64,000 nt of DNA from Heterodontus francisci (taxonomy: Eukaryota), in NCBI RefSeq assembly GCF_036365525.1, contig NC_090374.1:144547288-144611287 (forward strand). The letters are read 5' to 3'. This document shows, piece after piece, positions 20,619-63,960 of this stretch. The notes under the pieces are model-generated. The model was not told the DNA's origin, made no database searches, and saw only the letters and a program-made list of their open reading frames with translations. Numbering within the stretch: position 1 is the first letter of the stretch; every line of letters begins with the position of its first letter. The position numbers were made by a program, and so were the translations under genes.

Positions 20619-20799
20619 TAGTTTAAACCCTCCCCAACAGCGTTAGCAAAAGCACCCCCAAGGACATTGGTTCCAGTCCGGCCCAGGTGTAGACCGTCCA
20701 ATTTGTAATAGTCCCACCTCCCCCAGAACCGGTCCCAATGTCCCAAAAATCTGAACCCCTCCCTCCTGCACCATCTCTCAAGCCACGCATTCATCCTGA

Positions 20800-21561
20800 C
20801 TATTCTTTCATTTCTACTCTATCACGTGGCACTGGTAGCAATCCTGAGATTACTACCTTTGAGGTCCTACTTTTTAACTTGGCTCCTAACTCCCTAAATT
20901 CTGCTTGTAGGACCTCATCCCGTTTTTTACCTATATCATTGGTGCCTATGTGCACAACGACAACTGGCTGTTCACCCTCCCCCTTCAGAATGTTCTGCAG
21001 CCGATCTGAGACATCCCTGACCTGTGCACCTGGGAGGCAACATACCATTCGGGAGTCTCGTTTTCGACCACAGAACCGCCTATCTACTCCCCTTACAATC
21101 GAATCCCCTATGACTATAGCCCTTCCACTCTTTTTCCCGCCCTTCTGAACAGCAGAGCCAGCCACGGTGCCATGAACCTGGCTACTGCTGCCTTCCCCTG
21201 GTGAGCCATCTCCCTCAACAGTATCCAAAACGGTATACCTGTTGTGGAGGGAGATGACCGCAGGGGACACCTGCGCTGCCTTCCTGCTCTTTCTCTGCCT
21301 TTTGGTCACCCATTCCCTTTCTCCCTCAGCAATCCTAATCTGCGGTGTGACCAATTCACTAAACGTGCTATCCACGACCTCCTCAGCATCGCGGATGCTC
21401 CAAAGTGAGTCCATCCGCAGCTCCAGAGCCGTCATGCGGTCTAACAAGAGCTGCAGCTGGACACACTTCCTGCACGTGAAGGAGTCAGGGACATCAGCCA
21501 TGTCCCTGAGCTCCCACATTGAGCAAGAGGAGCATGTCACAGGTCTGAGATCTCCTGCCAT
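20800..21561 (-). CDS. CR1 ORF1: zinc finger/leucine zipper + SGNH esterase (C-terminus frameshifted)
   Basis: CSSC..CRKC, heptad leucines, GDSIVRG, PGA and HIGTND esterase blocks. Confidence 0.88.
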   Translation of the reverse strand: MAGDLRPVTCSSCSMWELRDMADVPDSFTCRKCVQLQLLLDRMTALELRMDSLWSIRDAEEVVDSTFSELVTPQIRIAEGEREWVTKRQRKSRKAAQVSPAVISLHNRYTVLDTVEGDGSPGEGSSSQVHGTVAGSAVQKGGKKSGRAIVIGDSIVRGVDRRFCGRKRDSRMVCCLPGAQVRDVSDRLQNILKGEGEQPVVVVHIGTNDIGKKRDEVLQAEFRELGAKLKSRTSKVVISGLLPVPRDRVEMKE

Positions 21562-21745
21562 TTTTAATCTTAAGCTTAAACTTAGTTAAATGAAAAAGGA
21601 ACGAAAAGTTTTTAACCAATCACACGATAAAAAAAAAGAGAAATAGAAAAAGCCTTACCTTATCTACACACCACCGAGTCCTTTTTTTTTGGTTAGAGGA
21701 GGGTGGTGGGTGGGAGACACTACAGGTGTAGCGTCTCGGGTTCAG

Positions 21746-27228: not shown

Positions 27229-30200
27229 GAACATAGAACAGTACAGCACAGTACAGGCCCTTCGGCCCACGATGTTGTGCCGAACCTTTAACCTACTCTA
27301 AGATCAAACTAACTACCTACCCTTCATTCTACTATCATCCATGTACCTATCCAAGAGTCGCTTAAATGCCCCTAATGTATCTGCTTCTACTACCACCGCT
27401 GGCATCGCATTCCACGCACCCACCACTCTCTGTGTAAAAAACCTACCTCTGACATCTCCCCGAAATCTTCCTCCAATCACCTTAAAATTATGCCCCCTTT
27501 CCACCCTGGGAAAAAGTCTCTGGCTATCCACTCTATCTATGCCTCTCATCATCTTGTACCCCTCTATCAAGTCACCTCTCATCCTTCTTCGCTCCAATGA
27601 GAAAAGCCCTAGCTCCCTCAATCTTTCTTCATAGGACATGCCCTCCAGTCCAGGCAGCATCCTGGTAAATCTCCTCTGCACCCTCTCTCAAGCTTCCACA
27701 TCCTTCCAATAATGAGGCGACCAGAACTGAACACAATATTCCAAGTGTGGTCGAACCAGGGCCTTATAGAGCTGCAGCATAACGTCGCGGCTCTTAAACC
27801 CAATCCCCCTGTTAATGAAAGCCAACACACCATACGCCTTCTTAACAACCCTATCAACTTGGGTGGCAACTTTGAGCGATCTATGGACATGGACCCCAAG
27901 ATCCCTCTGTTCCTCCACACTACCAAGAATCCTGTCTTTAAGCCTGTATTCTGCATTCAAATTCAACCTTCCAAAATGAATCACTTTACACTTTTCCAGG
28001 TTGAACTCCATCTGCCACTTCTCAGCCCAGCTCTGCATCCTGTCAATGTCCCGTTGCAACCTACAACAGCCTTCCACACCATCCACAACTCCAGCAACCT
28101 TCGTGTCATCAGCAAACTTGCTAACCCAGCCTTCCACTTCCTCATCCAAGCCATTTATAAAAATCACAAAGAGTAGAGGTCCCAGAATAGATCCTTGTGG
28201 AACACCACTGGTCACCGAGCTCCATGCTGAATACTTTCCATCTACTACCACCCTTTGACTTCTATGGGCCAGCCAATTTTGTATCCAGACTGCCAACTTT
28301 CCCTGAATCCCATGCCTCCTCACTTTCTGAATGAGCCTACCATGGGGAACCTTATCAAATGCCTTGCTAAAATCCATATACACCACATCCACTGCTCTTC
28401 CTTCATCAATGTGTTTTGTCACATCTTCAAAGAATTCAATAAGGCTTGTGAGGCATGACCTGCCCCTTACAAAGCCATGCTGACTGTCTCTAATCAAACC
28501 ATGCTTTTCCAAATAATCATAAATCCTGTCTCTCAGAATCCTCTCCAATAATTTGCCCACTACCAACGTAAGACTGACTGGTCTATAATTCCCAGGGTTA
28601 TCCCTATTCCCTTTCTTGAACAAGGGAACAACATTTGCCACCCTCCAATCATCCGGTACTACTCCAGTGGACAGTGAAGACGCAAAGATCATCGCCAAAG
28701 GTGTAGCAATCTCTTCCCTCGCTTCCCATAATATCCTTGGGTATATCCCGTCTGGCCCCGGGGACTTATCTGTCCTCACATCATTCAAAATTTCCAGCAC
28801 ATCCTCCCTCTTAACCTCAACCTGTTCGAGCATATCAGCCTGTTCCACGCTGTCCTCACAAACGACCTGGTCCATCTCACTAGTGAATACTGAAGCAAAG
28901 TATTCATTTAGGACCTCCCCTACCTCCTCCGACTCCAGGCACAAGTTCCCTCCACTATCCCTGATCGGCCCTACCCTCACTCTGGCCATCCTCTTGTTCC
29001 TCACATAAGTGTAGAACACCTTGGGATTTTCCTTAATCCTACCCAAGACATTTTCATGTCCCCTTCCAGCTCTCCTAAGTCCATTCTTCAGTTCCTTCCT
29101 GGCTACCTTGTAACCCTCTAGAGCCCTGTCTGATCCTTGCTTCCTCACCCTTAAGTAAGCTTCCTTCTTCCTCTTGATTAGCTGTTCCACATCTCTTGTC
29201 ATCCAAGGTTCCTTCACCCTACCATCCCTTCCCTGCCTCATCGGGACAAACCTATCCAACAGTCGCAGCAAGTGCTCCCTAAACAACCTCCACATTTCTG
29301 TTGTGCATTTCCCTGAGAACATCTGTTCCCAATTTATGCTCCCCAGTTCCTGCTAATAGCATTGTAATTCCCCCTCCCCCAATTAAATATTTTCCCATCC
29401 CGTCTGCTCCTGTCCCTCTCCATGACTATAGTAAAGGTGAGGGAGTTGTGATCACCATCACCGAAATGCTCTCCCGATAGATCTGTCACCTGGCCTGGTT
29501 CGTTGCCAAGCACCAAGTCCAATATAGCCTCCCCTCTAGTCGGCCTATCTACATATTGAGTCAGGAAACCTTCCTGGACACAACTGACAAAAACTGCTCC
29601 ATCCAAACTATTTGCACTGAGGAGGTTCCAATCAATATTAGGGAAGTTGAAATCACCCATGACAACAACCCTGTTACTTCTGCACCTTTCCAAAATCTGC
29701 CTCCCATTCTGTTCCTCCATGTCTCTGTTGCTATTGGGGGGTCTATAGAAAACTCCCAACAAAGTGACTGCTCCTTTCCTGTTTCTGACTTCCACCCATA
29801 ATGACTCAGTAGACAAACCCTCCTCGACGACCTCCCTTTCTGCAGCTGTGATACTATCCCTGATTAGCAATGCCACTCCCCCACCTCTTTTACCTCCCTC
29901 CCTATTCCTTTTGAAACATCTAAACCCCAGAACATCCAACATCCATTCCTGCCCCTGTGATAGCCATGTCTCCGTAATGGCCACAACATCGTAGCTCCAA
30001 GTACTGATCCATGCTCTAAGTTCATCACCCTTATTCCTGACACTTCTTGCGTTAAAATAGACACACTTCACTCCATCATACTGGCTGCAACTTTGCCCTG
30101 TCAACTGTCTAACCTTCCTCACAGACTCTCTGCACTCGGTATCTGCCTGTTCAACAGCTACCCCATCCACTGATCCGTAGCTCCGGTTCCCATCCCCCTG

Positions 30201-30967
30201 CCAAACTAGTTTAAACCCTCCCGAAGAGCTCTAGCAAACCTCCCGCCCAGGATATTGGTGCCCCTCCAGTTCAGATGCAACCCGTCCTTCTTGTACAGGT
30301 CCCACCTTCCCCAGAAGGTATCCCAATGATCCACATATCTGAATCCCTCCCTTCTGCACCAGTTCTGTAGCCACGTGTTGAGCTGCACTCGCTCCCCGTT
30401 TCTAGCCTCACTAGCACGTGGCACCGGTAACAATCCTGAGAATACTACTCTGCTCGTCCTGCCTTTCAGCTTCCAACCTAACTCCCTATATTCGCTTTTC
30501 AGGTCCTCATCCCTTTTCCTAGCTATGTCATTGGTACCGATATGTACCACGACCTCTGGCTGCTCCCCCTCCCCCTTAAGAATCCTGTAGACTCAATCCG
30601 AGACATCCCTGACCCTGGCACTCGGGAGGCAACATACCATCCGGGAGTCTCGTTCGCGACCACAGAATCTCCTGTCTGTTCCTCTAACCATTGAATCTCC
30701 TATCACTATCGCTCTCCTATTCTCCCCCCTTCCCTTCTGAGCCACTGGGCCAGGCTCAGTGCCAGAGACCTGGCCAATGTGGCTTTCCCCTGGTAGGTCG
30801 TCCCCCTCAACCGTATCCAAAACGGTATACTTATTATTGAGGGGAACGGCCACAGGGGATCCCTGCACTGTGCGCCTGTTCCCTTTCCCTCCCCTGACGG
30901 TCACCCAGCGACCTTTATCCTGTAACTTAGGTGTCACTACTTCCCTATAACTGCTATCACCCCCTCA
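27229..30967 (-). mobile_element. Near full-length CR1 LINE (second subfamily), 5'-truncated inside ORF1
   Basis: Esterase GDSMVRG/HIGTND/DGLHLN (30206-30937), APE (29334-30170), RT with intact FADD (27688-29322); (ttcta)n tail; GTTA flanks. Confidence 0.93.
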
Positions 30968-33100: not shown

Positions 33101-34328
33101 ACTTCTGATATGTCTTCCTTTTTCCTCAACCGAGGATTCCCCCCTCCACTGTGGTTGACAGGGCCCTCAACCGTGTCCAGTCCATTTCCCGCACCTCTAC
33201 CCTCACCCCTTCCCCTCCCTTCCAGAACCGCGACAGGGTTCCCCTTGTCCTCACTTCCCACCCCATCAGCCTCCATATCCAAATGATCATCCTCCGCCAT
33301 TTCCGCCACCTCCAGCGTGATGCCACGTGATACCAAACGCATCTTCCCCTCCCTTCCCGTCAACATTCCGAAGGGATCATTCCCTCCGTGACACCCTGGT
33401 CCACTCCTCCATTACCCCCACCACCTCATCCCCTTCCCATGGCACCTTCCCCTGCAATCGCAGGAGGTGTAATACCTGCCCATTTACATCCTCTCTCCTC
33501 ACTATCCCAGGCCCCAAATACTCCTTTCAGGTGAAGCAGTGATTTACTTGTACTTCTTTCAATTTAGTATACTGTATTCGCTGCTCACAATGTGGTCTCC
33601 TCTACATTGGGGAGACCAAATGCAGACTGGGTGACCGCTTTGCGGAACACCTCCGCTCAGTCCGCAAGCAGGACCCTGAGCTTCCGGTTGCTTGCCATTT
33701 CAACACTCCCCCCGGCTCTCATGCCCACACATCTGTCCTGGGCTTGCTGCAGTGTTCCAGTGAACATCAACGCAAGCTCGAGGAACAGCATCTCATTTAC
33801 CGATTAGGCACACTACAGCCTGCCGGACTGAACATTGAGTTCAATAATTTCAGAGCATGATGGGCCCCCCATTTTACTTTTATTTTCAGTTATTTTTTTC
33901 TTTTTCAAAATATTTTTTTGTGTTTATTTTATTTCATCTTAGTTTGTACAGTTTGCTTACCCACTTTTTTTCATGTTTGTACTTGCGGCTGTTCAATTTT
34001 CAGTCATTAACACCCTATATGTACTAATGCTTTGTCTTTGAACACACCATTAACATATTGTTTGCCTTTGCTCCACGACCTTCTGGTCAGCTACTCTGTG
34101 ACCTTGTCCTATTTACACCTTCTCCTTTGTTATCTCTTGCCCCACCCCTGCTTTACTTGCTTATAACCTTTTACATTTCTAATATTTGCTAGTTCGGAAG
34201 AAGGGTCACTGACCTGAAATGTTAACTCTGCTTCTCTCTCCACAGATGCTGCCAGACCTGCTGAGTATTTCCAGCATTTCTTGTTTTTATTTCAGATTTC
34301 CAGCCTCTGCAGTATTTTGCTTTTATTA
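33101..34328 (+). mobile_element. 5'-truncated Penelope-like element: GIY-YIG endonuclease remnant + pLTR
   Basis: LVYCIRCSQCGLLYIGETKCRLGDRFAEHLRSV...GTLQPAGLN (33540-33860); 16-bp duplication tt(a/g)ccaaattaac(a/t)gc at 33085-33100 and 34329-34344. Confidence 0.9.
34191..34227 (+). ncRNA. Minimal type I hammerhead motif in Penelope pLTR (core mutated, CGGAAGA)
   Basis: agtt-cggaaga-agggtcactgacct-gaaa-tgtt-aact. Confidence 0.55.
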
Positions 34329-37134
34329 TTGCCAAATTAACTGCCTGATCTTATGCTCATTCATTTTGGATTGACCAAATCACTGTTAATGCTTTATCCT
34401 ATCAGTGTATATGTGGTGGGGGTGATGTGGGGGCATGTCATTTTTCTTTCTCCCTAGTTCTCTACACTGCAGGAGTTACTGATGTGTACTAGAGCGTGCA
34501 TTGATGAGTGCTGACCCTCACCTGTGCCTTGTACAAATGTCCACCTTTCATTTGTGAGTACAGACAGCAGATGCCAGCAGACTATTTGATTATGGAAGAA
34601 GGGTAACACTACAACCAAGCCCGACATCCACCATCCACCCATGCATGCTTTCTTGATCAGGAGGGATCATTAACTGGATTTCTCCTATGTAACTGTGCGC
34701 AATGTAAGTGTTTTACCACTTCCCAGACTAAAATTAGCCACTTCACTACAGAACATTTATATTTTTTAATACCGCATCACATGGTGGGCTTAGCCACTAA
34801 TTCATTGGGGCAGCCCAATTAATTTATTATACATTATAGGATCTCCCATAGCACTGCTCAGTAATAGACAGCCTGCAGCTGACCTTGCTTATTCAAAGGC
34901 CACTGCTCAGTGTTTCCCAAGGGAAACAGGTAATTCCAGTTGCTTGCAAATTTCTGATGTAAATTAGATAGTCAAATGGAAGAGAAATCATGAACTATGA
35001 ATGTGAGATTTCCCAAAATATGTTTCCAAAATATTCTGGTGTATGAGGTGGAAAATCTCTCCTAACTGCTTGCGAATTTCAATATTCATATCGGAAGATC
35101 CCAGGATGTAGTGCCTCCCTTCCTTTCTTTTTTAAAAATTGTTTTGCTTTTGTAAGAAAGTGACATCTGGACTGTGATGGATGCATGCCAGGCATAAAGG
35201 GTTGATAACATATTGTTACTGTCAATACTTATTGGGGGAAAAAATTTGTTCATGTAGAGACAACATGGATTCTCTGGCAGCAGTTCGCACCACTGGATGC
35301 TACCTGTGCTTTGCTGCGTGGGTTTCTTGACCGATATCATTGTCTGCCCTTGCGGAAATCGACGTAGTCTGCATAGTACCATTAGAAGTGATGCTATGTG
35401 AAACAATTTTTCTGCCATTGTATTGGACCCTCCTTTCTCCTACAAACAGCAGCCCTAGAAAACTCTCCAGCTCCCAGCTTCTTTTCTTCCTTCTCTTGAA
35501 CCATACCCTTTCATGCTTGGCTGTTTGGGGAAAGTCTCTTCCCACTACAGTTGCAATGATCTTTTAACAGTGAGGTTCTTAAAGGAACCATACCCTGCCT
35601 CTTAAAGGCAGTTTCTAAAAGGGCTGTACCTTTACTCAGGGATCAGGGCCATCAGCCTGCAGCTGACATGCCTACCATCAATCACCCTGCTACAGTATAT
35701 ATTTTTCAGGAGTATTACACCACTAGAAAGCAGAGTGCAGATTTTCTCAATCAATACCTCCTGCTTGACAGCTGACCTGATTTTAACCAGAATGCATTAA
35801 CCATCATAGTGCTTTCCCATCACAGAGCAGGGAGGTGCCCAGAAATTCCAGGCAGATATAATGACAGAATTAATTATCCATACATACATTTACAAAAAAT
35901 GTTTGTATTTTTAACAAGTGCTAACCCTATGGCATCCATCTTGAATGCCCTTTAACTTTTCTTTCGTCAGTAGAGAAGTCCTTCACTAGTCATTTCAATG
36001 GATGTTCTCCTGATTGACCTCCATAACCTCACGGAAGATAGGTGGAATTCACAAAGAAAGTGTAAATGGGGCTTCTACCAAAGTAACGATGGGAGATTGG
36101 AGAAACCATGCAGATATCCTACTCCACTGAGTTTTTCTCAATCATCTATTTTCCCCTTTCATTAATCCATCAACATTACTACACAAAATCTTCCTCCCTT
36201 AAAAAACGTCTACCCATAAAATTCCCAAAGATATGGTTGCCACCCTGGCTCATCCTGAGAGGAAAGGTATCAACAGTATTATTTTAAACATTGTGAATTC
36301 TCAGGTGAATGAATCACCATGTGCCTTGGCATAAAATAGCAGAGACTACCTGTACAAACCTACAATTCCCTCCCCACTCTAGCCCAAGAGATCCTGGGCA
36401 TTTCACTTAGCTTAAAACACAACACCGTTCCTACAGCTTCATTAGATACACACCACCAACTCCATCTTAGTCCATAAGCAAAACCAGAGGAGACCCACTT
36501 TTATTACTTTTGGAAATAGAAAACAATGTTTGGAAGTGTGTTCATGGCTGTCTCTTACTCTTAGGATCAGATAGATTTTAGGAAAATTTGATACTCTTGT
36601 ATTTTGTTTCCCCTCTTGGTTCCAGCTCTTTTTCACATCAACCCCAATTCCCAATAAATCACACCCTCTCAAGTACTCTCTATCAGGCAGGTAGAACAAA
36701 TTTTCAGTAACCTGTTAAGCAGAAAGAATTACAATTTCATGGAGTAAAAGTTGTGCAACAGTTAAGGTTTCCCTAATGGGAGATTATTTATCTTGGCAGT
36801 TTGGAGGAACACTGATGACACACATAAACGGAGGTGAATCTTCGACCTCCATCAGTACTCAAAATAACCACCGCAATGAAGTGGTGTGAAAAGTTGTGAA
36901 ACAAAACTGCAACTTGCCCACAAAAGGGTAAAGTCTCCACAAAACTCCAACGGACTTGCTTTTGTTTGACCCTTTGTTGTCACACTTATTACTACAGGTT
37001 TAAGAAGGATAAGAACTCCACCCAATATAAATTCACCATTTGCTTTCAGTTTTTAAAAGTATTTTGATGCATATTTGTGTTTGATAAATATGCATGAGTT
37101 TTTTGAAGAAATGAATGCTTTTAAAGAACATACA

Positions 37135-43214: not shown

Positions 43215-44112
43215 GAACAAAGAACAAAGAAAATTATAGCACAGGAACAGGCCCTTCGGCCCTCCAAGCCTGCGCCGATCCAGATCCTCTATCTAAACCT
43301 GTCGCCTATTTTCTAAGGGTCTGTATCTCTTTGCTTCCTGCCCACTCATGTATCTGTCTAGATACATCTGAAAAGACGCTATCGTGCCCACGTCTACCAC
43401 CTCCGCTGGCAATGCATTCCAGGCACCCACCACCCTCTGCGTAAAGAACTTTCCACGCATATCCCCCCTAAACTTTTCCCCTCTCACTTTGAACTCGTGA
43501 CCCCTAGTAATTGAATCCCCCACTCTGGGGAAAAAGCTTCTTGCTATCCAACCTGTCTATACCTCTCATGATTTTGTACACCTCAATAAGGTCCCCTCTC
43601 AACCTCCGTCTTTCTAATGAAAATAATCCTAATCTACTCAACCTCTCTTCATAGCTAGCGCCCTCCATACCAGGCAACACCCTGGTGAACCTCCTCTGCA
43701 CCCTCTCCAAAGCATCCACATCCTTTTGGTAATGTGGCGACCAGAACTGCACGCAGTATTCCAAATGTGGCCGAACCAAAGTCTTATACAACTGTAACAT
43801 GACCTGCCAACTCTTGTACTCAATACCCCGTCCGATGAAGGAAAGCATGCCGTATGCCTTCTTGACCACTCTATTGACCTGCGTTGCCACCTTCAGGGAA
43901 CCATGGACCTGAATACCCAAATCTCTCTGCACATCAATTTTCCCCAGGACTTTTCCATTTATTGTATAGTCCACTCTTGAATTGGATCTTCCAAAATGCA
44001 TCACCTCGCATTTGCCCTGATTGAACTCCATCTGCCATTTCTCTGCCCAACTTTCCAATCTATCTATATTCTGCTGTATTCTCTGACAGTCCCCTTCACT
44101 ATCTGCTACTCT
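43215..44112 (-). mobile_element. 5'-truncated young CR1 (same subfamily as 17756-22058)
   Basis: Near-identical to 17756-18625. Confidence 0.92.
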
Positions 44113-44696
44113 TAACCACATTGTATTGGAATAGACTCACACAGGATAGTAACAACAGCAGTACTTTATTCCAAAATCTTTGAGTTTTCACTTGCTTGCC
44201 AGGCTGCATGTGTTCTTTGGACAGCCAGTTCCCACTGGTCTGCACTGGCACCCACTTCATTTATACTCATTCAGCACTCCCCCTCCTGGCCTTTTAAGTT
44301 TATTGCACCAATCTGACTTAACTGCCTTACATCCTAACTACAACATGACCTATCAACCGTAGGAACTGTCTATAAAAGATGTTACAGGTCAAATAGATTA
44401 AGTAATTATTTATGTGGCAACTGTGAAAAAGTTTTTTTAAAAACTTGCTCAGCATCGGATGTCACTTTGTACTGTATTCAGCAATAGAAGCCAAGTGCCA
44501 TCACAGCACTGAAGAATGACAGTATATTGCGCAGAATGTCTTCATCGATGTCTTTGCCTTGCCGAAAGCATCAGAACATTACATACTCCCACTTTGTAAA
44601 GATTGAGACAATACTGCAGCAGGGCAGTGAAAGGTAATTCGCAGGAACACAGAACATTCAGTACAATAATGACTGTGACAAAAACTAAACTGGAGT

Positions 44697-44931
44697 AAAT
44701 AAAAACATAAAGTGCTGGAAATACTCAGCAGGTCTGACAGCATCTGTGAAAAGAGAAGCAGAGTTAACGTTTCAGATTAGTCACCTTTCTTCAGAACTTT
44801 TTGATGAAAAGTCACTGATCTGAAATGTTAACTCTGTTTCTCTCTCCACAGATGCTGCCAGACTTGCTGAGTATTTTCGGAATCTTCTGGTTTTATTACA
44901 GATTTCCAGCATCTGCAGTATCTTGCTTTTA
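44697..44931. mobile_element. Inverted (fold-back) pair of Penelope pLTR fragments
   Basis: 44697-44798 is the reverse complement of ~44799-44897; homologous to 34191-34328. Confidence 0.85.
44762..44798 (-). ncRNA. Minimal type I hammerhead motif (CUGAAGA...GAAACGUU)
   Basis: Minus strand agtt-ctgaaga-aaggtgactaatct-gaaa-cgtt-aact; stem II degenerate. Confidence 0.6.
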
Positions 44932-44979
44932 TGTTACTATACCGGAGTAAGTTGATCACTGCAAATAGCTGTAGTCTTA

Positions 44980-45278
44980 TTTATTTTATTTACAGACACA
45001 GCACTGAAACAGGCCCTTCGGCCCACCGAGTCTGTGCCGACCAAGAACCACCCATTTATACTAACCCTATAGTAATCCCATATTCCCTACCACCTACCTA
45101 CACTAGGGCCAATTTACCCATCACCTGCAAGTCTTTGGCGGTGGGAGGAAACCGGAGCACCCGGCGTAAACCCACACGGTCACAGGAAGAACTTGCAAAC
45201 TCCGCACAGGCAGTACCCAGAATCGAACCCGGGTCCCTGGAGCTGTGAGGCTGCGGTGCTAACCACTGCGCCGCTGTG
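44980..45278 (-). mobile_element. HE1/V-SINE-type SINE
   Basis: Homologous to the 61887-62213 subfamily. Confidence 0.88.
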
Positions 45279-45349
45279 AGCATAAATGTCAATTTAATAC
45301 CATGTATTCGTGACAATCCAGAAGTACTGGAAAAGAAAATGTCTTGAGT

Positions 45350-46000
45350 AGTAACTAGTTAGTATAAGACAATCCTGTAATCAGTAACCAGCTAGTGTAA
45401 AAAAAATCCCACTGGTAAAATGCTGTAATTAGTAACCAGTTAGTATAACTATTTCCACTGGCAACACCCAGTTACTATAATTATCCAAGCTAGTATGGTA
45501 AACATTCGTGATGGGAATTTAAGTGTAAATATTCCTAATCCCCAGTTAGTGTAACTATCCCCTGGTTGTATCCGATTAGTGTAACTAACTCTTATGGCTG
45601 TTCCTGGTTAGTGTAAATATACCCACTGGTAGTACTCATTAGTGTAAACAACTCTGTTAGCTGGACCAGGTTAAGGTAAATATCACGGGTGACAGTATCC
45701 ATTAAAGTAACAAAGTAATTCATGACAATGCTACGTCATCGCACACGTCATCAGGATGCGCCGCGGTGCGCACATGCGCAGACGGTCTCATGCCCCCTGC
45801 GCATGCGTTGCGGTCCGGCTTACCAGGACCGCTTTGCGCATGCGCAGATGACTTAAAGTAATTACACTTGCTAGCAGTACCTGGTTGGTATAAATATATC
45901 TGCTGGTGGTTATAGGCTAGTGTAAATGTCCCGATGAGCCATACCAGGTTAGTGTAAATGCCTTCACTGGCAGTTCCTAGTTAGTGTTAATATCCCTGAT
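45350..46000. repeat. Degenerate ~31-32 bp minisatellite with TTAGTGTAAAT core
   Basis: Core at 45547, 45577, 45609, 45640, 45672, 45703, (insert), 45854, 45886, 45918, 45950, 45982. Confidence 0.8.
45711..45852. mobile_element. 142-bp CpG-rich palindromic insertion of unknown family
   Basis: Flanked by TTAAAGTAA (45702-10, 45853-61); removing it restores the satellite period. Confidence 0.7.
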
Positions 46001-46071
46001 CAAAGATGTTTATTGTATTAAGATGCTCATATTACACATGTCCCTTTTTAGTTATTAATAATATATATAAT

Positions 46072-46308
46072 ATATAAACAAGAAATGCTGGAAATACTCA
46101 GCAGGTCCGGCAGCATCTGTGGAGAGAGAAGCAGAGTTAACATTTCAGGTCAGTGACCCTTCATCAGAACTGGCAAATGTTAGAAATGTAATAGGTTTGA
46201 AGCAAATAAAGCAGGGGTGGGGCAAGAGATAACAAAAGGGAAGGTGTTGATAGGACAGAGGGTCACAGAGAATAACTGACCAGAAGCTCATGGAGCAAAG
46301 GCAAATGG
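46072..46308 (-). mobile_element. Penelope pLTR fragment
   Basis: Reverse complement of ~34060-34290. Confidence 0.88.
46135..46171 (-). ncRNA. Minimal type I hammerhead motif with intact CUGAUGA/GAAA core
   Basis: Minus strand agtt-ctgatga-agggtcactgacct-gaaa-tgtt-aact; stem I agtt/aact, stem II ggtc(a)/(t)gacc. Confidence 0.7.
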
Positions 46309-46492
46309 TTTTTAGTCTCTTTTTAGTTATCAGACTTCCTTAACAGAAGGCTGGTACTGCTGATGCTTCTAACTAATGTAAATCAACTGAATAATAAGCA
46401 CTCAAGTCACAAAATGCTTAGCAGGGAGTATTTATTGATTAATATAGGGTAGCTACTAAATTCCACTTCTAGATAGAAAAAAAAAACTCCAT

Positions 46493-49400
46493 AACGTAAC
46501 TCCTTTATTCAAAAAGGGAGGGAGACCGGAAGCAGGAAACTACAGCCAGTTAGCTTAACATCGGTCTTAGGGAAAATGTTAGAAGCTATTATTAAAGACG
46601 TTATAGTAGGGCACTTAGGAAAATTCAAGATAATCAGGCAGAGTCAACATGGTCCTGTGAAAGGGAAATCATGTTTAACCAACTTATTGGAGTTCTTTGA
46701 AGAAGTACCATGTGCTGTGGATAAAGGGAAACCGGTGGATGCACTGGACTTAGATTTCTAGAAGGCATTTGAAAAGGTGCCACATCAAAGGTTATTGCAG
46801 AAAATAAAAGCTCACTGTGTAGGGAGCAACATATCGGCATGTTTAGAAGATGGGCTAGCTAACAGGAAACAGAGAGTAGGCATAAATGTGTCATTTTCCG
46901 GTTGGCAAGATGTAACGAGTGTGTGCTGCAGGGATCAGTGTTGGGGCCTCAACCTTTTACAATTTATATAAATGACCTCGATGAAGGTACCAAAGGTATT
47001 ATTGCTAAATTTGATGACACAACGATACGTAGGAAAGTAAGTTGCGAAGAGGACGTAAGGGAGCTACAAAGGGACATAGATAGGTTAAATGAGTGGGAAA
47101 AGATCTGGCAAATGGAATATAAATTTGGGAAAATGTGAACTTTTCCATTTGACAGGAAGAATAAAAAAGAAGCATATTATCTAAATGGTGAGAGATTGCA
47201 GAGGGATCTGGGTGTCCTGGTGCATGAATTGCAAAAGGTAAATATGCATTTTTAGCAAGTAATTAGGAAAGCTAATAGAATGTTATCATTTATTGCAAGG
47301 GGAATTGAATACAAAAGTAGGGAGGTTATGCCTCTGTTATACAGGGCATTGGACTACATCTGGTGTACTGTTACACTATTGGTCTCCTTATTTAAGGAAG
47401 GATGTAAATGCATTGGAAGCAGTTCAGAGAAGGTTCACTAGACTATTACCTAGAATAGGTGGGTTGTCTTATGAGGAAAGATTGGACAAGCTAGGCTTGT
47501 ATCTGCTGGAATTTAGAAGAGTAAGAGGCAACTTGATTGAAACATATAAGATCCTGATGGTTCTTGACAGGGTGGTTATGGAAAGGATGTTTCCCCTTGT
47601 GGGAGAATCTAGAACAAGGGGTCACTATATGAAAATTTGGATCGCCCATTTAAGATAGAGATGAGGAGAAATTTTTTCTCAGAGGGTCGTGTGTTTTTCC
47701 AACTCTCTTCCTTAAAGGGCAGTGGAAGCAGAGTCTTTAAATTTTTTTAAAATTTCATTCATGGGATGTAGGCATCACAGGCTATGCCAGCATTTATTAC
47801 CCATCCCCAATTGCCCTCGAGAAGGTGGAGGTGAGCTGTCTTCTTGAACTGCTGCAGTCCATTTGGGGTAGGTACACCCACAGTGCTGTGAGGAAGGGAG
47901 TTCCAGGATTTTGACCCAGCGACAGTGAAAGAATGGCGATACAGTTCCAAGTCAGGACGGTGTGTGACTTGGAGGGGAACTTGGTGGTGTTCCCATGCAT
48001 TTGCTGCCCATGTCCTTCTAGTCGGTAGAGGTCGCGGGTTTGGAAGGTGCTGTCTAAGGAGCCTTGGTGCATTGCTGCAGTGCATCTTGGAGATGGTACA
48101 CACTGTTGCCACTGTGTATCGGCGTTGGAGGGAGTGAATGTTTGCAGATGGGGTGCCAATGAAGCGGGCTGCTTTGTCCTGGATGCCAAAGGTATCAAGG
48201 GATTATGGGGAGAAAGCGGGAACAGGGTACTGAATTAGATGATCAGCTATGATCTTTTTTGAATGGTGGAGCAGCAGGAATGGCCGAATGGCCTACTCCT
48301 GCTCCTATTATGGATGGTGTCGAGCTTCTTGAGTGTTGTTGGAGCTGCCCACATCCAGGCAAGTGGAGTGTATTCCATCACAGTCCTGATTTGTGCCTTG
48401 TAAATGGTGGACAGGCTTTGGGGAGTGAGGTGGTGAGTTACTCGCCACAGGGTTCCTAGCCTTTGACCTGCTCTTGTGGCCACGGTATTTATATGGCTAC
48501 TCCAGTTCAGTTTCTGGTCAATGGTAATTCCCACGATGTTGATGGTGGGGGATTCAGTCATGGCAATGCCATTGAATGTCAAGGGGAGATGGTTAGATTC
48601 TCTCTTGTTGGAGATGGTCATTGCCTGGCACTTGTGTGGCGCAAATGTTACTTGCGACTCATCATCCCAAGCTTGGATATTGTCCAGGTCTTGCTGCATT
48701 TCTACACGGACTGCTTCAGTATCTGAGGAGTCGCGAATGGTGCTGAACATTGTGCAATCATCAGCGAACATCCCCATTTTTGACCTTATGATTGAAGGGA
48801 GGTCATTGATGAAGCAACTGAAGATGATTGGGCCTACGACACTACCCTGAGGAACTCCTGCAGTGATGTCCTGGAGCTCAGATGATTGACCTCCAACGAC
48901 CACAACCATCTTCCTTTATGCTAGGTATGACTCCAACCAGCAAAGAGTTTTCCCCCTAATTCCCATTGACCTCAGTTTTGCTAGGGCTCCTTGATGCCAT
49001 ACTCAGTTAAATGCTGCCTTGATGTCAAGGGCAGTCACTCTCACCTCATCTCTTGCGTTCAGCTCTTTTGTTCATGTTTGAACCAAGGCCATAATGAGGT
49101 TAGGAGCCAAGTGGCCCTGGCAGAACCCAAATTGAGCATTACTGAGCAAGTTATTACTAAGCAAGTGCCGCTAGATAACACGGTCGATGACACCTTTCAT
49201 CGCTTTATTGATAATTGAGAGTAGACTGATAGGGCAGTAATTGGCCAGGTTGGACCTGTCCTGCTTTTTGTGTACAGGACGTACCTGGGCAATTTTCCCC
49301 ATTGCCGGGTAGATGCTAGTGTTGTAGCTGTACTGGAACAGCTTGGCTAGGGGTGTGGCAAGTTCTGGAGACAGGTCTTCTGTACTATTGCCGGAATATT

Positions 49401-50810
49401 GTCAGGGCCCATAGCTTTTGCAGTATCCAGTGCCTTCAGTCATTCCTTGATATCACGCGGTGTGAATCGAATTGGCTGAAGTCTGATATCTGTGATGCTG
49501 GGGACATCAGGAGGAGGCTGAGATGGATCAACAACTCGGCACTTCTGGCTGAAGATTGTTGCAAGTGTTTCAGCCTTATCTTTCGCACTGATGTGCTGGA
49601 CTCCCCCATCATTGAGGATGGGGATATTTGTGGAGCCACCTCCTCCAGTTAGTTGTTTAATTGTCCACCACCATTCACGGCTGGATGTGGCAGGACTGCA
49701 GAGCTTAGATCTGATCCGTTGGTTATGGAATCGCTTAGCTATGTCTATCACATGCTGCTTATGCAGTTTGGCACGCAGGTAAATATGTGTTGTAGCTTCA
49801 CCAGGTTGACACCTCATTTTGAGGCATGCCTGGTGCTGCTCCTCCTGCACTATTCATTGAACCAGAGTCAGTCTCCTGGCTTGATGGTAATGGTAGAGTG
49901 GGGAATATGCCGGGCCACGAGGTTACAGATTGTGGTTGAGTACAATTCTGCTGCTACTGATAGCCCACAGCGCCTCATGGATGCCCAGTTTTGCATTGCT
50001 AGATCTGTTCGAAATCTATCCCATTTAGCACGGTGGTAGTGCCACACAACACGATGGAGGGTATCCTCAACGTGAAGGCGGAACTTCGTCTCCACAAGGA
50101 CTGTGAGGTGGTCACTCCTACCAATACTGTCATTGACAGATGCACCTGCGGCAGGCAGATTGATGAGGACAAGGTCAAGTAGGTTTTTCCCTCACCATCT
50201 GCTGCATACCCAGTCTGGCAGCTATGTCCTTTAGGACTTGGTCAGCTCGATCAGTAGTGGTGCTACCGAACCACTCTTGGTGATGGACATTGATGTCCCC
50301 CACCCAGAGTACATTCTGCAACCTTGCCACCCTCAGTGCTTCCTTCAAGTGGTGTTCAACATGGAGGAGTACTGATTCCTCAGCTGAGGGAGGGCGGTAG
50401 GTCGTAATCAGCAGGAGGTTTCCTTACCGATGTTTGATCTGATATCATGAGACTTCATGGGGTCCGGAGTCAATGTTGAGGACTCCCAGGGCAACTCCCT
50501 CCCGACTGTATACCACAGTGCTGCCACCTCTGTTGGGTCTGTCCTGCCGATGTGGCAGGACATACCCAGGGATGGTGATGGCAGCGTCTGGGACATTGTA
50601 ATGTATGATTCCGTGAGTATGACTGTGTCAGGTTATTTTTAAGGCAGAGGTAGATAGATTCTTGATAAGCAAAGGAGTGAAAGGTTATTGGGGGTAGGCA
50701 GGAATGTGGAATCGAAGTTACAATCAGATCAGCCACAGCCATGATCTCATTGAATGGCAGAGCAGGTTTGAGGGACCAAGTGGCCGACTTCTGATAATTC
50801 GTATGTTCGC
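46493..50810 (+). mobile_element. CR1 RT + 3' end (46493-47745, resumes 50632-50810), split by LINE family B
   Basis: KGKSCLTNLLEFFEE, QGSVLGP, KFDDT, ALEAVQRRFTRL; continuation ttaaggcagaggtagatagattc and tail. Confidence 0.85.
47757..50631 (-). mobile_element. Long LINE family B copy (APE + RT remnants)
   Basis: GVPQGSVVGP, FADD, WHYHRAKWDRFRTDL; tail matches 7690-7735; contains a small + strand CR1 tail at ~48186-48310 flanked by TGGATG. Confidence 0.88.
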
Positions 50811-51291
50811 AGATTTTCACTTCCCAGTCTAATTATGTCGTACAAAGTTGGAACAAAATGACCTATTATTGTTTATCCTAACATCTGCCAGCAAAATAAT
50901 GAAAATGCACAGCTCCCTCTGTGACTTAGCGTTAAGCCAAACAGATCCAAAGGTTCCAGTTTATTTCCCAGGATGAACTGAATTTGCTGATCTCGAATCA
51001 GGAAGCTGTTGGTGTATAATAGAAAGTCTATAGGATTGGGGAAAATAGAACAGCCAGAATTACAGCTGCCCATTGTTTCTCAGTCACGCGTTCTGGAAAG
51101 TGCACATTTGCAGATTTCCGGTAAGGACAGATATAGGATCTGTTGTGATGCCCAGTACAGTTGAATAACCAAAATTTACTATCAACATAAAGAATATCCT
51201 GAGGCATCAGTGGGATGTTGGTACAAGCATTATCTCAGTAAGATTTAGCACCTTCAGTAAAAGAGGGGCAAGGCCTCAAAATAAATTGTAT

Positions 51292-52108
51292 AATGTGGTT
51301 AAATATGAGGTTATCCACTTTGGTAGCAAAAACAGGAAGGCAGATTATTATCTGAACGGCTATAAACAGAGAGGGGAATATGCAACGAGACCTGGGTGTT
51401 CTTGTACACCAGTCGCTGAAGGTTAGCATGCAGGTGCAACAAGCTGTAAAAAAGGCAAATGGTATGTTGGCCTTCATAGCGAAAGGATTCGAGTACAGGA
51501 GCAGGGATGTCTTGCTGCAATTATACAGGGCCTTGGTGAGGCCACACCTGGAATATTGTGTGCAGTTTTGGTCTCCTTCTCTGAGGAAGGATGTTCTTGC
51601 TATAGAGGGAGCGCAGTGAAGGTTTACCAGACTGATTCCTGGGATGGCGGGACTGACGTATGAGGAGAGATTGAGTCGGTTAGGATTATATTCGCTGGAG
51701 TTCAGAAGAGTGAGGGGGGGATCTTATCGAAACCCATAAAATTCTAACAGGTCTTGACAGGGTAGATGCAGGAAGGATGTTCCCGATGGTGGGGGAGTCC
51801 AGAACCAGGGGTCATAGTCTAAGGATACGGGGTAAACCTTTCTGGACTGAGATGAGGAGAAATTACTTCACCCAGAGAGTGGTGAGCCTGTGGAATTCGC
51901 TACCACAGAAAGCAGTTGAGGCCAAACCATTGTATGATTTCAAGAAGGAGTTAGATACAGCTCTTGGGGCAAAAGGGATCAAAGGATATGGGGAGAAAGC
52001 GGGAACAGGTTACTGAGTTGGATGATCAGCCATGATCATAATGAATGGTGGAGCAGGCTGGAAGGGTCGAAGGGCCTACTCCTGCTCCCATTTTCTATGT
52101 TTCTATGT
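51292..52108 (+). mobile_element. 5'-truncated CR1
   Basis: QRDLGVLVHQSLK..RPHLEYCVQFWSP; (ttctatgt)n tail. Confidence 0.9.
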
Positions 52109-52719
52109 TAATACTGCATTCTGGAGCATCAAGATTCAAGATAGAAGTAATATTTACATGATGTTAACGTCTCAAAGTGTTACAGTTTTATGCTGCTGTC
52201 CACATCCTCACCTAAAACAGCATGTCTTTACAATATTACCTCACTTTTTTTGGTTGCACTTCGCTTTTGCTGGTATGAAGGAAAAAAAAATATAGGAACA
52301 AACATTTATCCTTTGGCAACATACGAGGGGAAATAGGGCCGATTGGATTTCTCTACAGAGAGCCGGCATCAACTTGATGAGCCTAATGGCCTCCTTCTGT
52401 GCCATTATGACTCTATGAGCATGTAGATATTTAGATCTAAAGACATTTATCTGAACAGAATCTGGAAGCCGTGCATCAGGCTGAGATTCTGGAACGTAGG
52501 AGGAGCTTCAGATGAAGTCACCTTATTATAAAATTCAGGGATGTAAAATAGAAAAGTATTTTAAGCAATTCCCAGAAAAACAAGTTATTACTGACATAAC
52601 TCACCTGTTATATTTGTCCTCATCACTGTTTGTAACAAGGTGACTATGTAACACATTATCTTTATTCATGTGCTCATTAAAGAATAACTTAAAAAAGTGA
52701 CAGCAGTAGATTGTCTCAC

Positions 52720-52959
52720 CGCCTCTTCATGCTCCTTCCAGCAGTCATAGTCGGTTGCCATGGCAATGCTAGCATAACAAATGCCTGCTTCTTTAGCCAG
52801 TACCACCTCTGGTACGGTGGTCATGTTAATGACATCGCCATGCCACTGACGAAACATTAGGCTCTCAGCCCGAGAGGAGAAACGGGGTCCTTCAATTGTA
52901 ACCATCGTCCCTTCTGCATGGTGTCTAATTCCCAGTTTCTTTACAACATCTATCAACAC
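52720..52959 (-). CDS. MTAP: MTAP exon (human exon 6 equivalent), [10 protein letters not shown]...CWKEHEEA
   Basis: [56 protein letters not shown] identical to human; 240 nt, AG/GTGAG boundaries. Confidence 0.98.
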
Positions 52960-54173
52960 CTTAAATTCAAATAGATAAAAGCAATAAGATAGTTGGGGAT
53001 CATCACTCAGCAACAATACTGATAAAAGGAGCACATTTTAAAAATTCAACGGAAGCTCGATGCAATGGCCTAAATAAACCAGTCGATACAAATGCATTCT
53101 TATGAACAAACACAGGGTTCCATTTTTAACAGGTCTCTGCATCAACATTATATATGCAAGTGGGTGCAGTTGAAGTTGTGACAAGCACACTGGACCCAAG
53201 ATGTGTTGCTTTTGTCAGAAGAACACTGTGCAAAGGAGAACAGCTGAATAACTGTGATGATAATTGAAGCTGTTCTACTTCCCCCAGCATTTGAAATACT
53301 GCCTTTTACGCAGACCAACTTCAACAGATTAACCCTGGCTCAGTTCCATCGCCAACACACCCATGTTGCAGGTCCAATGCTGAAACAATGACTCCGCAGG
53401 TTCAAATGTGCATACTTGAGTATTTAAGGGAGAACAAGAGGCAAAAAGATCCCCTGACATTTTATCAAAGCGTAAGTAGTTCTTCTCTTCGCCTGGCCAA
53501 CATTCATCCCACACTAACACCACATTGCTGGTCATTGGACTTTGCGGTGTACAAATTGGCCCACAAAATTCATTACATAAGTTCAAGTCCTTTATCACAA
53601 GGTGTTGTATATTGCAGCTACCCTGTCTCTCTCTCTATGGGTTCAAGGTTGACCCCTCAGTCTGGCATGTGAATGTCAGTAAATGAAAATAATGGCACAA
53701 AACTGCTGGAAAGGGGGCTCTGTTACGATATTTTTCCTGCATCCTTCAGCTCAACATATTTTTCTGCCACAAATTGCAGAAACTGTGAGCTGATAATGAC
53801 GTGTTGAGGGCAATGGACATCTGGAACCTTGATGAACTATGAACAGTCTATCTCCTTAACCAAAGAGAGTTAAGGATTGCGAAAGAAACAGCAACAATAG
53901 AAAAAAAAAGGACTTGTGTTTATATAGTGCTTTTCACAATGAACAGATTGCTCAAAGTGCCTTACAGCCAATGAAGCACTTTTTAAGTGTAGTTACTGTT
54001 GTAATGTAGGAAAAGAGAAGGAAATAGGCTGAATTAGTGTCAAATCAGGTGCAGAAAAAAGCAAGAAATAGGGGAAAGATTAGATGAAAAGAGAGCAAAA
54101 AAAGAGAAGAATAGAAAAGGATTTTTTTTTAATTTCTATTTTAAAAACCTCTAGAACAACTTTTTAACCGTAG

Positions 54174-55169: not shown

Positions 55170-55410
55170 GAGATGGAAATAGAAAATGGTAAAAGTACAT
55201 GGAAAATCAATCAGCATCTATTAAGGCAAAAAAACCATGTTAATATTTCAGGTGTATACACTTCATCAGAAACCAGTATTGTTAATTACAATAAAAAGAT
55301 ACACCCAGAATGTTAACTTGTTGCTTTTCTTTAGATTCTAGTTGACCTACTGTGCATTTCCAATATTTTCTATATTTATTCCAGATTTCCAACATTTGTC
55401 TTTCTTTTCA
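55170..55410. mobile_element. Old inverted Penelope pLTR pair with hammerhead relic (minus ~55238-55273)
   Basis: Minus strand ttt-ctgatga-agtgtatacacct-gaaa-tatt-aac; decayed mirror arm ending ccagatttccaacat. Confidence 0.55.
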
Positions 55411-57048: not shown

Positions 57049-59505
57049 TAAGAACAAAGAACAATGCAGCACAGGAACAGGCCATTCGGCCCTCCAAGCC
57101 TGCGCCGATCTTGATGCCTGTCTAAACTAAAACCTTCTGCACTTCCGGGGACCATATCCCTCTATTCCCATCCTATTCATGTATTTGTCAAGATGCCTTT
57201 TAAACGTTGCTATCGTACCTGCTTCCACCACCTCCCCCAGCAGCAAGTTCCAGGCACTCACCACCATCTGTGTAAAGAACTTGCCTCGCACATCCCCTCT
57301 AAACTTTGCCCTTCGCACCTTAAACCTATGCCCACTAGTGACTGACTCTTCCACCCTGGGAAAAAGCTTCTGACTATCCACTCTGTCCATGCTCTCACAG
57401 AGAGTAGTAGGGGCGTGGAACGCCCTGCCTGCAACAGTAGTAGGCTCGCCAACTTTAAGGGCATTGAAGTGGTCATTGGATAGACATATGGATGAAAATG
57501 GAATAGTGTAGGTCAGATGGTTTCACATGTCGGCGCAACATCGAGGGCTGAAGGGCCTGTACTGCGCTGTAATGTTCTATGTTCTATGCCACTCATAACT
57601 TTGTAAACCTCTATCATGTCGCCCCTCCACCTCCGTCGTTCCAGTGAAAACAATCCAAGTTTATCCAACCTCTCCTCATAGCTAATACCCTCCAGACCAG
57701 GCAACATCCTGGTAAACCTCTTCTGTACCCTCTCCAAAGCCTCCACGTCCTTCTGGTAGTGTGGCGACCAGAATTGCATGCAATATTCTAAGTGTGGCCC
57801 AACTAAAGTTCTGTACAGCTGCAGCATGACTTGCCAATTTTTATACTCTATGCCCTGACCGATGAAGGCAAGCATGCTGTATGCCTTCTTGACTACCTTA
57901 TCCACCTGCGTTGCCACTTTGTGACCTGTGGACCTGTACGCCCAGATCTCTCTGCCTGTCAATACTCCTAAGGGTTCTGCCATTTACTGTATACTTCCCA
58001 CCTGTATTAGATCTTCCAAAATGCATTACCTCACATTTGTCCGGATTAAACTCCATCTTCCATTTCTCCGCCCAAGTCTCCAACCGATCTATATCCTGAT
58101 GTATCCTCTGACAATCCTCATCACTATCCGCAACTCCACCAACCTTTGTGTCGTCCGCAAACTTACTAATCAGGCCAGCTACATTTTCCTCCAAATCATT
58201 TATATATACTACAAACAGCAAAGGTCCCAGCACTGATCCCTGCGGAACACCACTAGTCACAGCCTTCCATTCAGAAAAGCACCCTTCCACTGCTACCCTC
58301 TGTTTTCTATGACAGAGCCAGTTCTGTATCTATCTTGCCAGCTCATCTCTGATCCCATGTGACTTCACCTTTTGTACCAGTCTGCCACGAAGGACCTTGT
58401 CAAAGGCTTTACTGAAGTCCATTTCGTCAACATTCACTGCCCTTCCTTCATCAATCATCTTTGTCACTTCTTCAAAAAACTCAATCAAGTTAGTGAGACA
58501 TGACCTCCCCTTCACAAAACCATGCTGCCTCTCGCTAATAAGTTCATTTGTTTCCAAATGGGAGTAAATCCTGTCCCGAAGAATCCTCTCCAATAATTTC
58601 CCTACCACTGACGTAAGGCTCACCAGCCTATAATTTCCTGGATTATCCTTGCTACCCTTCTTAAACAAAGGAACAACATTGGCTATTCCCCAATCCGCTG
58701 GGACCTCACCTGTAGCCAATGAGGATGCAAAGATTTCTGTCAAGGCCCCAGCAATTTCTTCCCTTGCCTCCCTCAGTATTCTGGGGTAGATCCCATCAGG
58801 CCCTGGGGACTTAGCTACCTTAATGCTTTGCAAGACACTCAACACTTCCTCCTTTTTGATAACGACATGACCGAGACTATCTACACTCCCTTCCCTAGAC
58901 TCATCATCCACCAAGTCCTTCTCTTTGGTGAATACTGATGCAAAGTACTCATTTAGTACCTCGTCCATTTCCTCTGGCTCCACACATAGATTCCCTCCTC
59001 TGTCCTTGAGTGGGCCAACCCTTTCCCTGGCTACCCTCTTGCTCTTTATATACGTATAAAAAGCCTTGGGATTCTCCTTAATCCTGTTTGCCAATGACTT
59101 TTCATGACCCCTTTTAGCCCTCCTGACTCCTTGCTTAAGTTCTTTCCTACTTTCTTTATATTCCTCAAGGGATTCGTCTGTTCCTAGCCTTCCAGCCCTT
59201 ACGAATGCTTCCTTTTTCTTTTTGACTAGGCTCACAATATCCCTCGTTATCCAAGGTTCCTGAAACTTGTCAAACTTATCCTTCTTCCTCACAGGAAGAT
59301 GCCGGTCCTGGATTCTAATCAACTGATGTTTGAAAGACTCCCACATGTCAGATGTTGATTTACCCTCAAACAGCCACCCCCAATCTAAATTCTTCAGTTC
59401 CTGCCTAATATTGTTATAATTAGCCTTCCCCCAATTTAGCACCTTCACCCGAGGACTACTCTTATCCTTATTCACAAGTACCTTGAAACTTATGGAATTA
59501 TGGTA
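57049..59505 (-). mobile_element. 5'-truncated CR1 (third subfamily) with a nested + strand CR1 tail at ~57393-57583
   Basis: RT motifs DFSKAFD, PQGSVLGP, FADD; nested fragment flanked by c(c/t)atgc. Confidence 0.92.
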
Positions 59506-59676
59506 ACTAGTGCAATCCTTTGAATGAGAGGTTAAACTAAGATCCTCCCTACCTATTTTGATATATGAGAGCCCATGGGAATGGTTAAAGAAAAGTAGAA
59601 TGATCTGCTGTCCTGCACAACATTCCTCCCTCAGCCAAAGTTACTGCTGCTTCGGGAATCTTGCTATGCACAAAAT

Positions 59677-63739: not shown

Positions 63740-63960
63740 CAGGACATTGTACCTACAGCGTTAAACAAAGTAAATATTGCAAGACAGAAAAGGAAGTACC
63801 TCTACCTTGTTGAGGCTGAATGTCAAGCTTCTGACAACTTTTCTGTCTCCTCCTAAACTATGACCCCACTACTGAACACCAAGCCATCATGTCCCAGGCC
63901 ATTACTGACCTCATCTCCTCTGAAGATCTTCTCACTACTCCCTCCAACCTCAGTTTCCCA
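63740..63960 (+). mobile_element. Decayed Penelope RT fragment
   Basis: LYLVEAE...YDPTTEHQAIMSQAITDLISSEDL resembles the Penelope pre-RT region. Confidence 0.55.

Follow-up and report, generated by a model that had tools for sequence, protein, structure and literature searches.

Decayed minimal hammerhead motifs of an abundant Penelope-like element in an MTAP intron of Heterodontus francisci are likely inert

Introduction

Two motifs that read as minimal hammerhead ribozymes lie 1373 nt apart, in the same orientation, in one intron of the MTAP gene of Heterodontus francisci. Their arrangement raises the question of whether they could pair in the nascent transcript and cut it, as was proposed in an initial annotation of the 64,000-nucleotide stretch of DNA analysed here (the window). 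The two motifs are referred to below as copies A and B. Comparison with the rest of the genome and folding predictions together indicate that A and B are decayed minimal hammerheads in two separate truncated insertions of an abundant Penelope-like element (PLE), and that they very probably bring about no meaningful cleavage of the MTAP pre-mRNA. They appear to be additional examples of the minimal hammerheads known from PLEs: real, ordinary and likely inert. For MTAP itself there is likely no consequence, the motifs being repeat debris of which some 48,000 better-kept copies exist in the genome, and according to published work PLE hammerheads are dispensable for insertion in vitro. The family as a whole is of modest interest, in that an activity-lowering core variant dominates its intact elements and cut RNA is rarely the template for new copies.

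Hammerhead motifs and their host intron

Read from the window sequence, copy A is AGTT CTGATGA AGGGTCACTGACCT GAAA TGTT AACT and copy B is AGTT CTGAAGA AAGGTGACTAATCT GAAA CGTT AACT (Table 1). Both contain the canonical core C3-U4-G5-A6-N7-G8-A9 together with G12-A13-A14, A15.1-U16.1 and H17, and both are closed as type I hammerheads by a short helix I (AGUU/AACU). Helix II has an extra base after A9; in A its G.U pair stands at 10.1-11.1, and in B it has lost the closing pair and is weak (-0.6 kcal/mol, against -4.4 and -6.0 kcal/mol in undecayed forms). Cleavage is predicted at 46139/46138 in A and at 44766/44765 in B. A strict descriptor, consisting of a 4-bp stem I, the core, GAAA and NUH, matched the 64-kb window at A and B only; on 300 approximate dinucleotide shuffles it gave one match in a single shuffle and two matches in none. 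The motif at 55238 retains its core, with only 2 pairs in stem I and a stem II of -0.8 kcal/mol.

All five motif stretches read as the initial annotation had given them. Its description of them as type I hammerheads of the minimal form, belonging to the terminal repeats (pLTRs) of Penelope-like elements, is supported, and the defects that it named, AAUGUU in A and a weak stem II in B, were found in the sequence and the stem energies. The Rfam search that it proposed brought no hammerhead among the 12 matches of the window at E<=10.

Table 1. Positions in the window of the hammerhead motifs, the insertions that carry them and the flanking MTAP exons
Feature	Position	Strand	Remarks
Copy A	46135-46171	-	minimal hammerhead; CUGAUGA core, 5-bp stem II opening with G.U, palindrome AAUGUU (decayed)
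Copy B	44762-44798	-	minimal hammerhead; CUGAAGA core, AACGUU intact, stem II down to 4 weak pairs
Third motif	44797-44833	+	core mutated; inside right arm of fold-back
Fourth motif	34191-34227	+	core position 4 is G; lies antisense to MTAP
Fifth motif	55238-55273	-	badly decayed; in older, diverged stub; intron upstream of 52959 exon
Fragment carrying copy A	46072-46305	-	PLE end fragment, 5'-truncated
Likely target-site duplication of fragment A, left	46040-46055	+	16 nt, 1 mismatch to right copy
Likely target-site duplication of fragment A, right	46315-46330	+	pairs with 46040-46055
Fold-back PLE stub, left arm	44697-44798	-	element positions +1 to +102; holds copy B
Fold-back PLE stub, right arm	44799-44932	+	reaches ~+137 including PLE tail; antisense in MTAP transcript, transcribed before B
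Likely target-site duplication of fold-back, left	44684-44698	+	15 nt, 2 mismatches to right copy
Likely target-site duplication of fold-back, right	44936-44950	+	pairs with 44684-44698
Broken PLE, 3' part	33102-34345	+	88% like an intact element; runs antisense to MTAP; complementarity to fragment A 90.6% over 234 nt
GIY-YIG endonuclease remnant	33543-33857	+	Pfam PF01541, E 3.7e-4, 21.2 bits (cut-off 22.6)
MTAP exon	52720-52959	-	human residues 151-230
Next MTAP exon	2512-2634	-	human residues 231-270

The two MTAP exons are bounded by AG/GT ends and enclose an intron of 50,085 nt, which we take to be intron 6 by homology to the human gene. Because these exons flank both copies on the minus strand, A and B are sense within the same intron, and the co-transcription that had been claimed for them is supported. 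The motif at 55238 lies upstream of the 52959 exon and hence in another intron; motif scans for an earlier MTAP exon in the window and the next 50 kb found none. A literature search for a hammerhead ribozyme in an MTAP intron found nothing. Two minor features of the intron may be noted. The stretch 45730-45860 is GC-rich, with repeated TGCGCATGCGCA palindromes amid AT-rich intron DNA, and a candidate cryptic splice acceptor lies at 46117-46140 (-), where a branch-like TTAAC overlapping the cut site is followed by a pyrimidine tract and a CAG ending at about 46117. Contigs of four sequencing runs, putatively of RNA origin, were aligned to 43800-53300; they include the MTAP exon within longer contigs, next to tens of thousands of contigs that stem from other repeat copies.

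The parent Penelope-like element

The fourth motif directly follows the GIY-YIG remnant of the broken PLE. When the genome was searched with this remnant and 150 of 98,760 candidates were scored, several of the matches lay in 924-aa open frames. In 14 of the matching regions, picked mostly for long frames or paired matches, frames with reverse transcriptase (RT) and GIY-YIG domains occur in 3295-bp tandems, each repeat with the motif. Since the remnant precedes the 34191 copy and the motif is found in every tandem repeat of the intact elements, the motifs are of PLE origin. At one locus outside the window, L061, a single ORF combines RT with a C-terminal GIY-YIG domain, as in an EN+ PLE, and the window holds a remnant only; the L061 protein, 916 aa from its first Met, matches RVT_1 at E 6.3e-6 and GIY-YIG at E 0.0018, neither match reaching the Pfam cut-off.

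The first ATG of the intact element is at +173, with the motif 172 nt upstream. A candidate leader intron of about 95 nt (L061:4560-4665), running from GTGAAT to a pyrimidine tract and a CAG just before this ATG, was also seen; Drosophila Penelope, to which it can be likened, reportedly has a leader intron. The linker between the RT and the endonuclease of the L061 protein is C-X4-C-X2-C. This fits the linker CX2-5CxxC, which is described as absent in Penelope/Poseidon and as a mark of Neptune and Nematis (PMC8557442).

The element is abundant. In the 6.0-Gb H. francisci genome there are 100,950 exact matches to a 28-nt PLE flank, and 48,086 undecayed motifs (36,738 with a CCGA core and 11,348 with a CUGA core), or about one per 125 kb; because of this number the MTAP pair is nothing special. 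A sample of copies was formed by the 99 unique copies out of the first 100 flank matches listed on one contig (C1). Their 3' ends fall at +93..+112 in 55 and at +133..+152 in 42, and 23 of the 99 are fold-back arms. The hallmarks of PLEs, namely tandem pLTRs, 5' truncation, inverted stubs and a 30-40 nt tail, are all present. Two of the loci on this contig, L095 and L098, lie 278 kb apart and have a common host flank as well as the stub, which makes a segmental duplication likely. The window itself holds a further PLE remnant at 63798-63952 (+), which resembles the intact element's coding region at 75%.

Copies A and B are separate, decayed insertions

A and B are separate insertions and not a pLTR pair, because each has its own likely target-site duplication. 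The DNA between them is unrelated to the fragments, and they do not form the head-to-tail tandem units by which retrozymes are recognised. The arms of the fold-back that holds B end at +102 and about +137, which are the two 3'-end classes of the PLE family and agree with the tail reported for PLEs (PMC11167929; PMC8557442).

Both copies have decayed, with 98 of 100 positions identical to an undecayed older-subfamily copy in A and 88 of 100 in B. Neither motif is better preserved than neutral source copies: B lacks stem II pairs and A its palindrome, while the genome holds the 48,086 undecayed copies counted above. In the motifs of the 30 loci nearest to A, the stem III site reads CG in 11, TG in 11, CA in 4 and otherwise in 2, a pattern which indicates that AAUGUU in A arose by CpG decay. 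A like origin for its core, with CUGA as a CpG-decayed CCGA, was rejected: 27 of the 28 motifs in the nearest loci read CTG with T11.1, and genome-wide 9,641 of the 11,348 CUGA copies carry T11.1, which is a subfamily state.

Predicted pairing in the MTAP transcript

In vitro, metazoan minimal hammerheads are reported to be inactive as monomers and of low activity as dimers (PMC4209133), and the PLE hammerhead of the anole is described as failing to cleave in the absence of the element's protein, with RNA-seq showing no ends there (PMC11167929). The folding model used here does not include the tertiary contacts of the core and sets a penalty of 11-18 kcal/mol on intact pairs as well, which leaves only differences between its values as meaningful. 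A and B can be arranged on paper as a nested dimer that lacks one of its 22 pairs, stem III showing only one G.U wobble. Distance would be no bar to it, since natural PLE tandems span about 3.3 kb.

In the MTAP transcript, copy A is predicted to pair with itself, with the arm 44932-44799 or, later, with the antisense copy 34061-34294, so that the dimer would be out-competed; two antisense partners in the same intron are stronger, at a predicted -132 and -389 kcal/mol. The least improbable of the competing ideas is that A alone is occasionally cut in trans by the hammerhead of another PLE transcript with the help of PLE protein, which would amount to a genome-wide leak and not to a device of MTAP. 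A is nearly identical to an undecayed copy and keeps its stem II, the genome offers undecayed partners by the tens of thousands as well as intact protein frames, and assistance by the protein has been published (PMC11167929). The dimer interface would consist of three 4-bp helices, however, and A is predicted to misfold locally, with a stem II probability of at most 0.09 in context, as well as to meet its long antisense partners in cis. We regard such cleavage as very improbable.

Copy B is predicted to be closed off before it could act. The antisense arm 44932-44799 would be made before B and would close it up in a hairpin about 90 bp long; the fold-back has a folding energy of -119.9 kcal/mol (z -14.8), and B pairs with the inverted arm at a predicted probability of about 0.8 in its natural context. 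The suggestion that the arm could sequester B is in this respect well founded. The central proposal of the initial annotation, that the two copies could pair despite the 1.4 kb between them and cut the intron after GUU, fares badly under the same model; that this happens in the nascent transcript to a degree that alters MTAP processing is, in our judgement, less probable still than cleavage in trans. It has in its favour that both copies are sense in one intron, that they retain the canonical CUGANGA/GAAA core, that nearly all dimer pairs can form and that natural dimers bridge a longer distance; in addition, the protein encoded by the numerous intact PLEs could serve as a chaperone. Against this, B is held by the earlier-made arm and its stem II is nearly lost, although weak stems II are found in natural hammerheads (PMC3088659). 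No A-B dimer pair is predicted above 6e-5 in natural context. The forced dimer lies 56.2 kcal/mol above the ensemble in a 1.7-kb context and 54.8 kcal/mol above it in a transcript ending just after B, and still 32.2 kcal/mol above it when the inverted arm is removed in silico.

As two strands with 135 nt of upstream context, A x B has a gap of 53.3 kcal/mol, compared with 17.9 and 15.7 kcal/mol in undecayed pairs, so that in context the dimer is predicted to be about 35 kcal/mol worse than the controls. As bare 37-mers, the gap is 8.9 kcal/mol for A x B against 11.1 and 15.1 kcal/mol for the controls, the dimer energies being -3.5 against -13.7 and -8.5 kcal/mol. Since the bare 37-mers fare no worse than the controls by their gap, the case against the dimer rests on context and decay and not on the cores. 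Separate insertion and ordinary decay also speak against a joint function, and introns cut by hammerheads are reported to be spliced nonetheless (PMC2995048). If A-B cleavage did occur, two unrelated insertions would have built a working ribozyme in a host gene; the evidence is against it.

Least probable of all is that any effect of the repeats on MTAP RNA comes without a ribozyme, from long double-stranded RNA (an editing substrate) or a cryptic splice acceptor, for which the predicted intron duplexes (-110, -132 and -389 kcal/mol) and the branch-like TTAAC, pyrimidine tract and CAG of the sense repeat could be adduced, yet inverted pairs are so common among the sampled copies that MTAP is not singled out. 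The preferred reading is that A and B likely do not cut MTAP RNA, because they are decayed scraps and B is predicted to be shut by its mirror copy.

Where genomic copies begin

The ends of genomic copies bear on which RNA was inserted. Among the 99 sampled copies, the 5' end lies at -8..+6 of the motif's first base in 43 and at +7..+29 in 11; the cut site is the start of one, and the others begin at -279..-9 (16 copies) or beyond this upstream (28 copies). An origin of the short copies at the cleavage site was rejected on this count (1/99), and an origin at a splice acceptor is not favoured, the DNA upstream of them being without a common sequence. Exact duplications, found in 16 of the 43 short copies tried, place the starts at -2 to +10, often with microhomology, so that a cap-derived G is indistinguishable.

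The motif's first base falls within TCAGTTC, which we take to fit the initiator consensus. In Drosophila, Penelope is described as having an internal promoter with an initiator (PMC2377424). Transcription likely begins at +1, with uncut RNA serving as the template for insertion; to judge by the copy ends, cleaved RNA seldom takes this role. A literature search on this point led to PMC8557442 only. Within the parent element, the motif would form the first 37 bases of the transcript and dimerise with its twin 3295 nt downstream in the tandem. Most genomic copies would then be reverse transcripts of uncut RNA which landed at random and decayed neutrally.

Core subfamilies

The commonest subfamily does not have the core of A and B. 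It has a CCGAAGA core (U4C) with a G10.1-C11.1 pair, as at L061:4492-4528, and accounts for the 36,738 exact CCGA copies; older subfamilies have CUGA with G.U or A-U at 10.1-11.1. The CCGA core is found in 24 of 24 motifs of the 14 long-frame regions and in 25 of 28 in the GIY-YIG loci, sets which were chosen through the window's own GIY-YIG remnant, and intact U4 elements may exist beside them. The C4/G-C class is likely the youngest subfamily, because it is the most uniform: its mean differences per 30 nt are 1.05, against 4.65 and 2.96 in the U4 classes. The expectation that the CUGANGA/GAAA core would be conserved in a genome-wide pLTR consensus thus holds in part. The majority reads CCGAAGA; the core positions other than 4 are retained in 55-59 of 59 spanning copies, and the AACGUU palindrome is kept in 55-57 of these 59 at each of two positions.

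At the 10.1-11.1 pair, 80 copies are readable, 19 of the 99 being left out as cut inside the motif or shifted; the pair is G-C in 46, G.U in 23, A-U in 10 and unpaired in one. That pairing is kept in 79 of 80 suggests that the fold has been maintained along master lineages, which is modest evidence, as copies of the same master are not independent. On these alignments covariation is demonstrated within the PLE family alone, at one pair. An unrelated hammerhead family was sought by pattern; of the 1,201 matches, the 100 listed contained nothing beyond variants of this family. A search for relatives of the 55238 stub to the same end gave mostly matches to the stub's flank, and a relaxed descriptor run over 650 kb of genome DNA found only this PLE family.

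CpG decay of the core in the young subfamily has led to CUGA (with C11.1) in 1,707 copies and to CCAA, which kills the core, in 1,588, by search patterns that differ slightly at 11.1. Decay in the two directions is about equal and gives no genome-wide sign of canonical cores being purged, in a count that takes sense-strand intronic copies together with all others.

The U4C core of the dominant subfamily is a fresher result than the MTAP motifs. The change is reported to lower activity considerably in vitro and yet to be sufficient for a viroid (PMC3088659). A literature search for U4C in a PLE hammerhead did not find it; the supplements of the papers may list it. It is possible, although we hold it to be doubtful, that the subfamily which is both youngest and largest spread through the genome while carrying an attenuated U4C hammerhead on the opening bases of its transcript, its copies made from uncut RNA and the MTAP pair standing idle. 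In that case, successful PLEs would retain cleavage that is slow or held back, and comparing the U4/G.U and C4/G-C subfamilies would offer a direct test of the ribozyme's part in the PLE life cycle.

Comparison with known systems

The motifs resemble the minimal hammerheads of metazoan PLEs (Cervera and De la Pena 2014, PMC4209133) in their 4-bp helix I, the absence of a helix III loop, the palindromic 15.2-16.2, the extra base after A9 and their occurrence as thousands of scattered single copies and close opposite-strand pairs. They differ in helix II, which has 5 bp here and 7-8 bp in the schistosome families, and in the core, where the majority subfamily has C4; the parts of that report drawn on here name the variant U3-A8 and not U4C, and do not name cartilaginous fishes. 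A literature search for Penelope hammerheads in elasmobranchs or sharks found no relevant paper.

In the green anole, the Poseidon element PAc (Frangieh et al. 2024, PMC11167929) likewise has a hammerhead in its pLTR, two 3' ends separated by 30-40 nt (at about +100 and +137 in the present element) and uncut RNA as the template for insertion. In PAc the ORF starts inside the hammerhead, whereas here the first ATG lies well downstream; the linker motif of the L061 protein also sets the element apart from the Poseidon group of PAc, going by the description in PMC8557442. The inverted, 5'-truncated pLTR described by Craig et al. (2021, PMC8557442) resembles 44697-44932 in having an inverted truncated copy by the 5' end and a tail at one end. 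In the present fold-back each arm is a stub of 100-140 nt beginning with the hammerhead's first bases, a fixed start that does not appear in the relevant part of that account.

Two further groups are comparable. The intronic hammerheads of amniotes (RECK and others, PMC6155905) are also of type I, lie in host introns and are thought to be derived from retroelements. They are conserved across species, whereas A and B are minimal, need a partner and belong, in decayed form, to a mass repeat. Non-LTR retrozymes, reported from one chondrichthyan, have a type I hammerhead from PLE pLTRs too (bioRxiv 10.64898/2026.07.22.740005), but they form head-to-tail tandems, whereas A and B lie 1.4 kb from each other as dispersed fragments of unequal extent.

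Other features of the window

A weak tRNA-like match is present at 14726-14817 (+); at 22.4 bits it is below the gathering score and is likely the head of a SINE. Long reading frames like those of reverse transcriptases and endonucleases occupy 18017-21585, 27313-30964 and 57127-59640, and are presumably copies of CR1-type LINEs.
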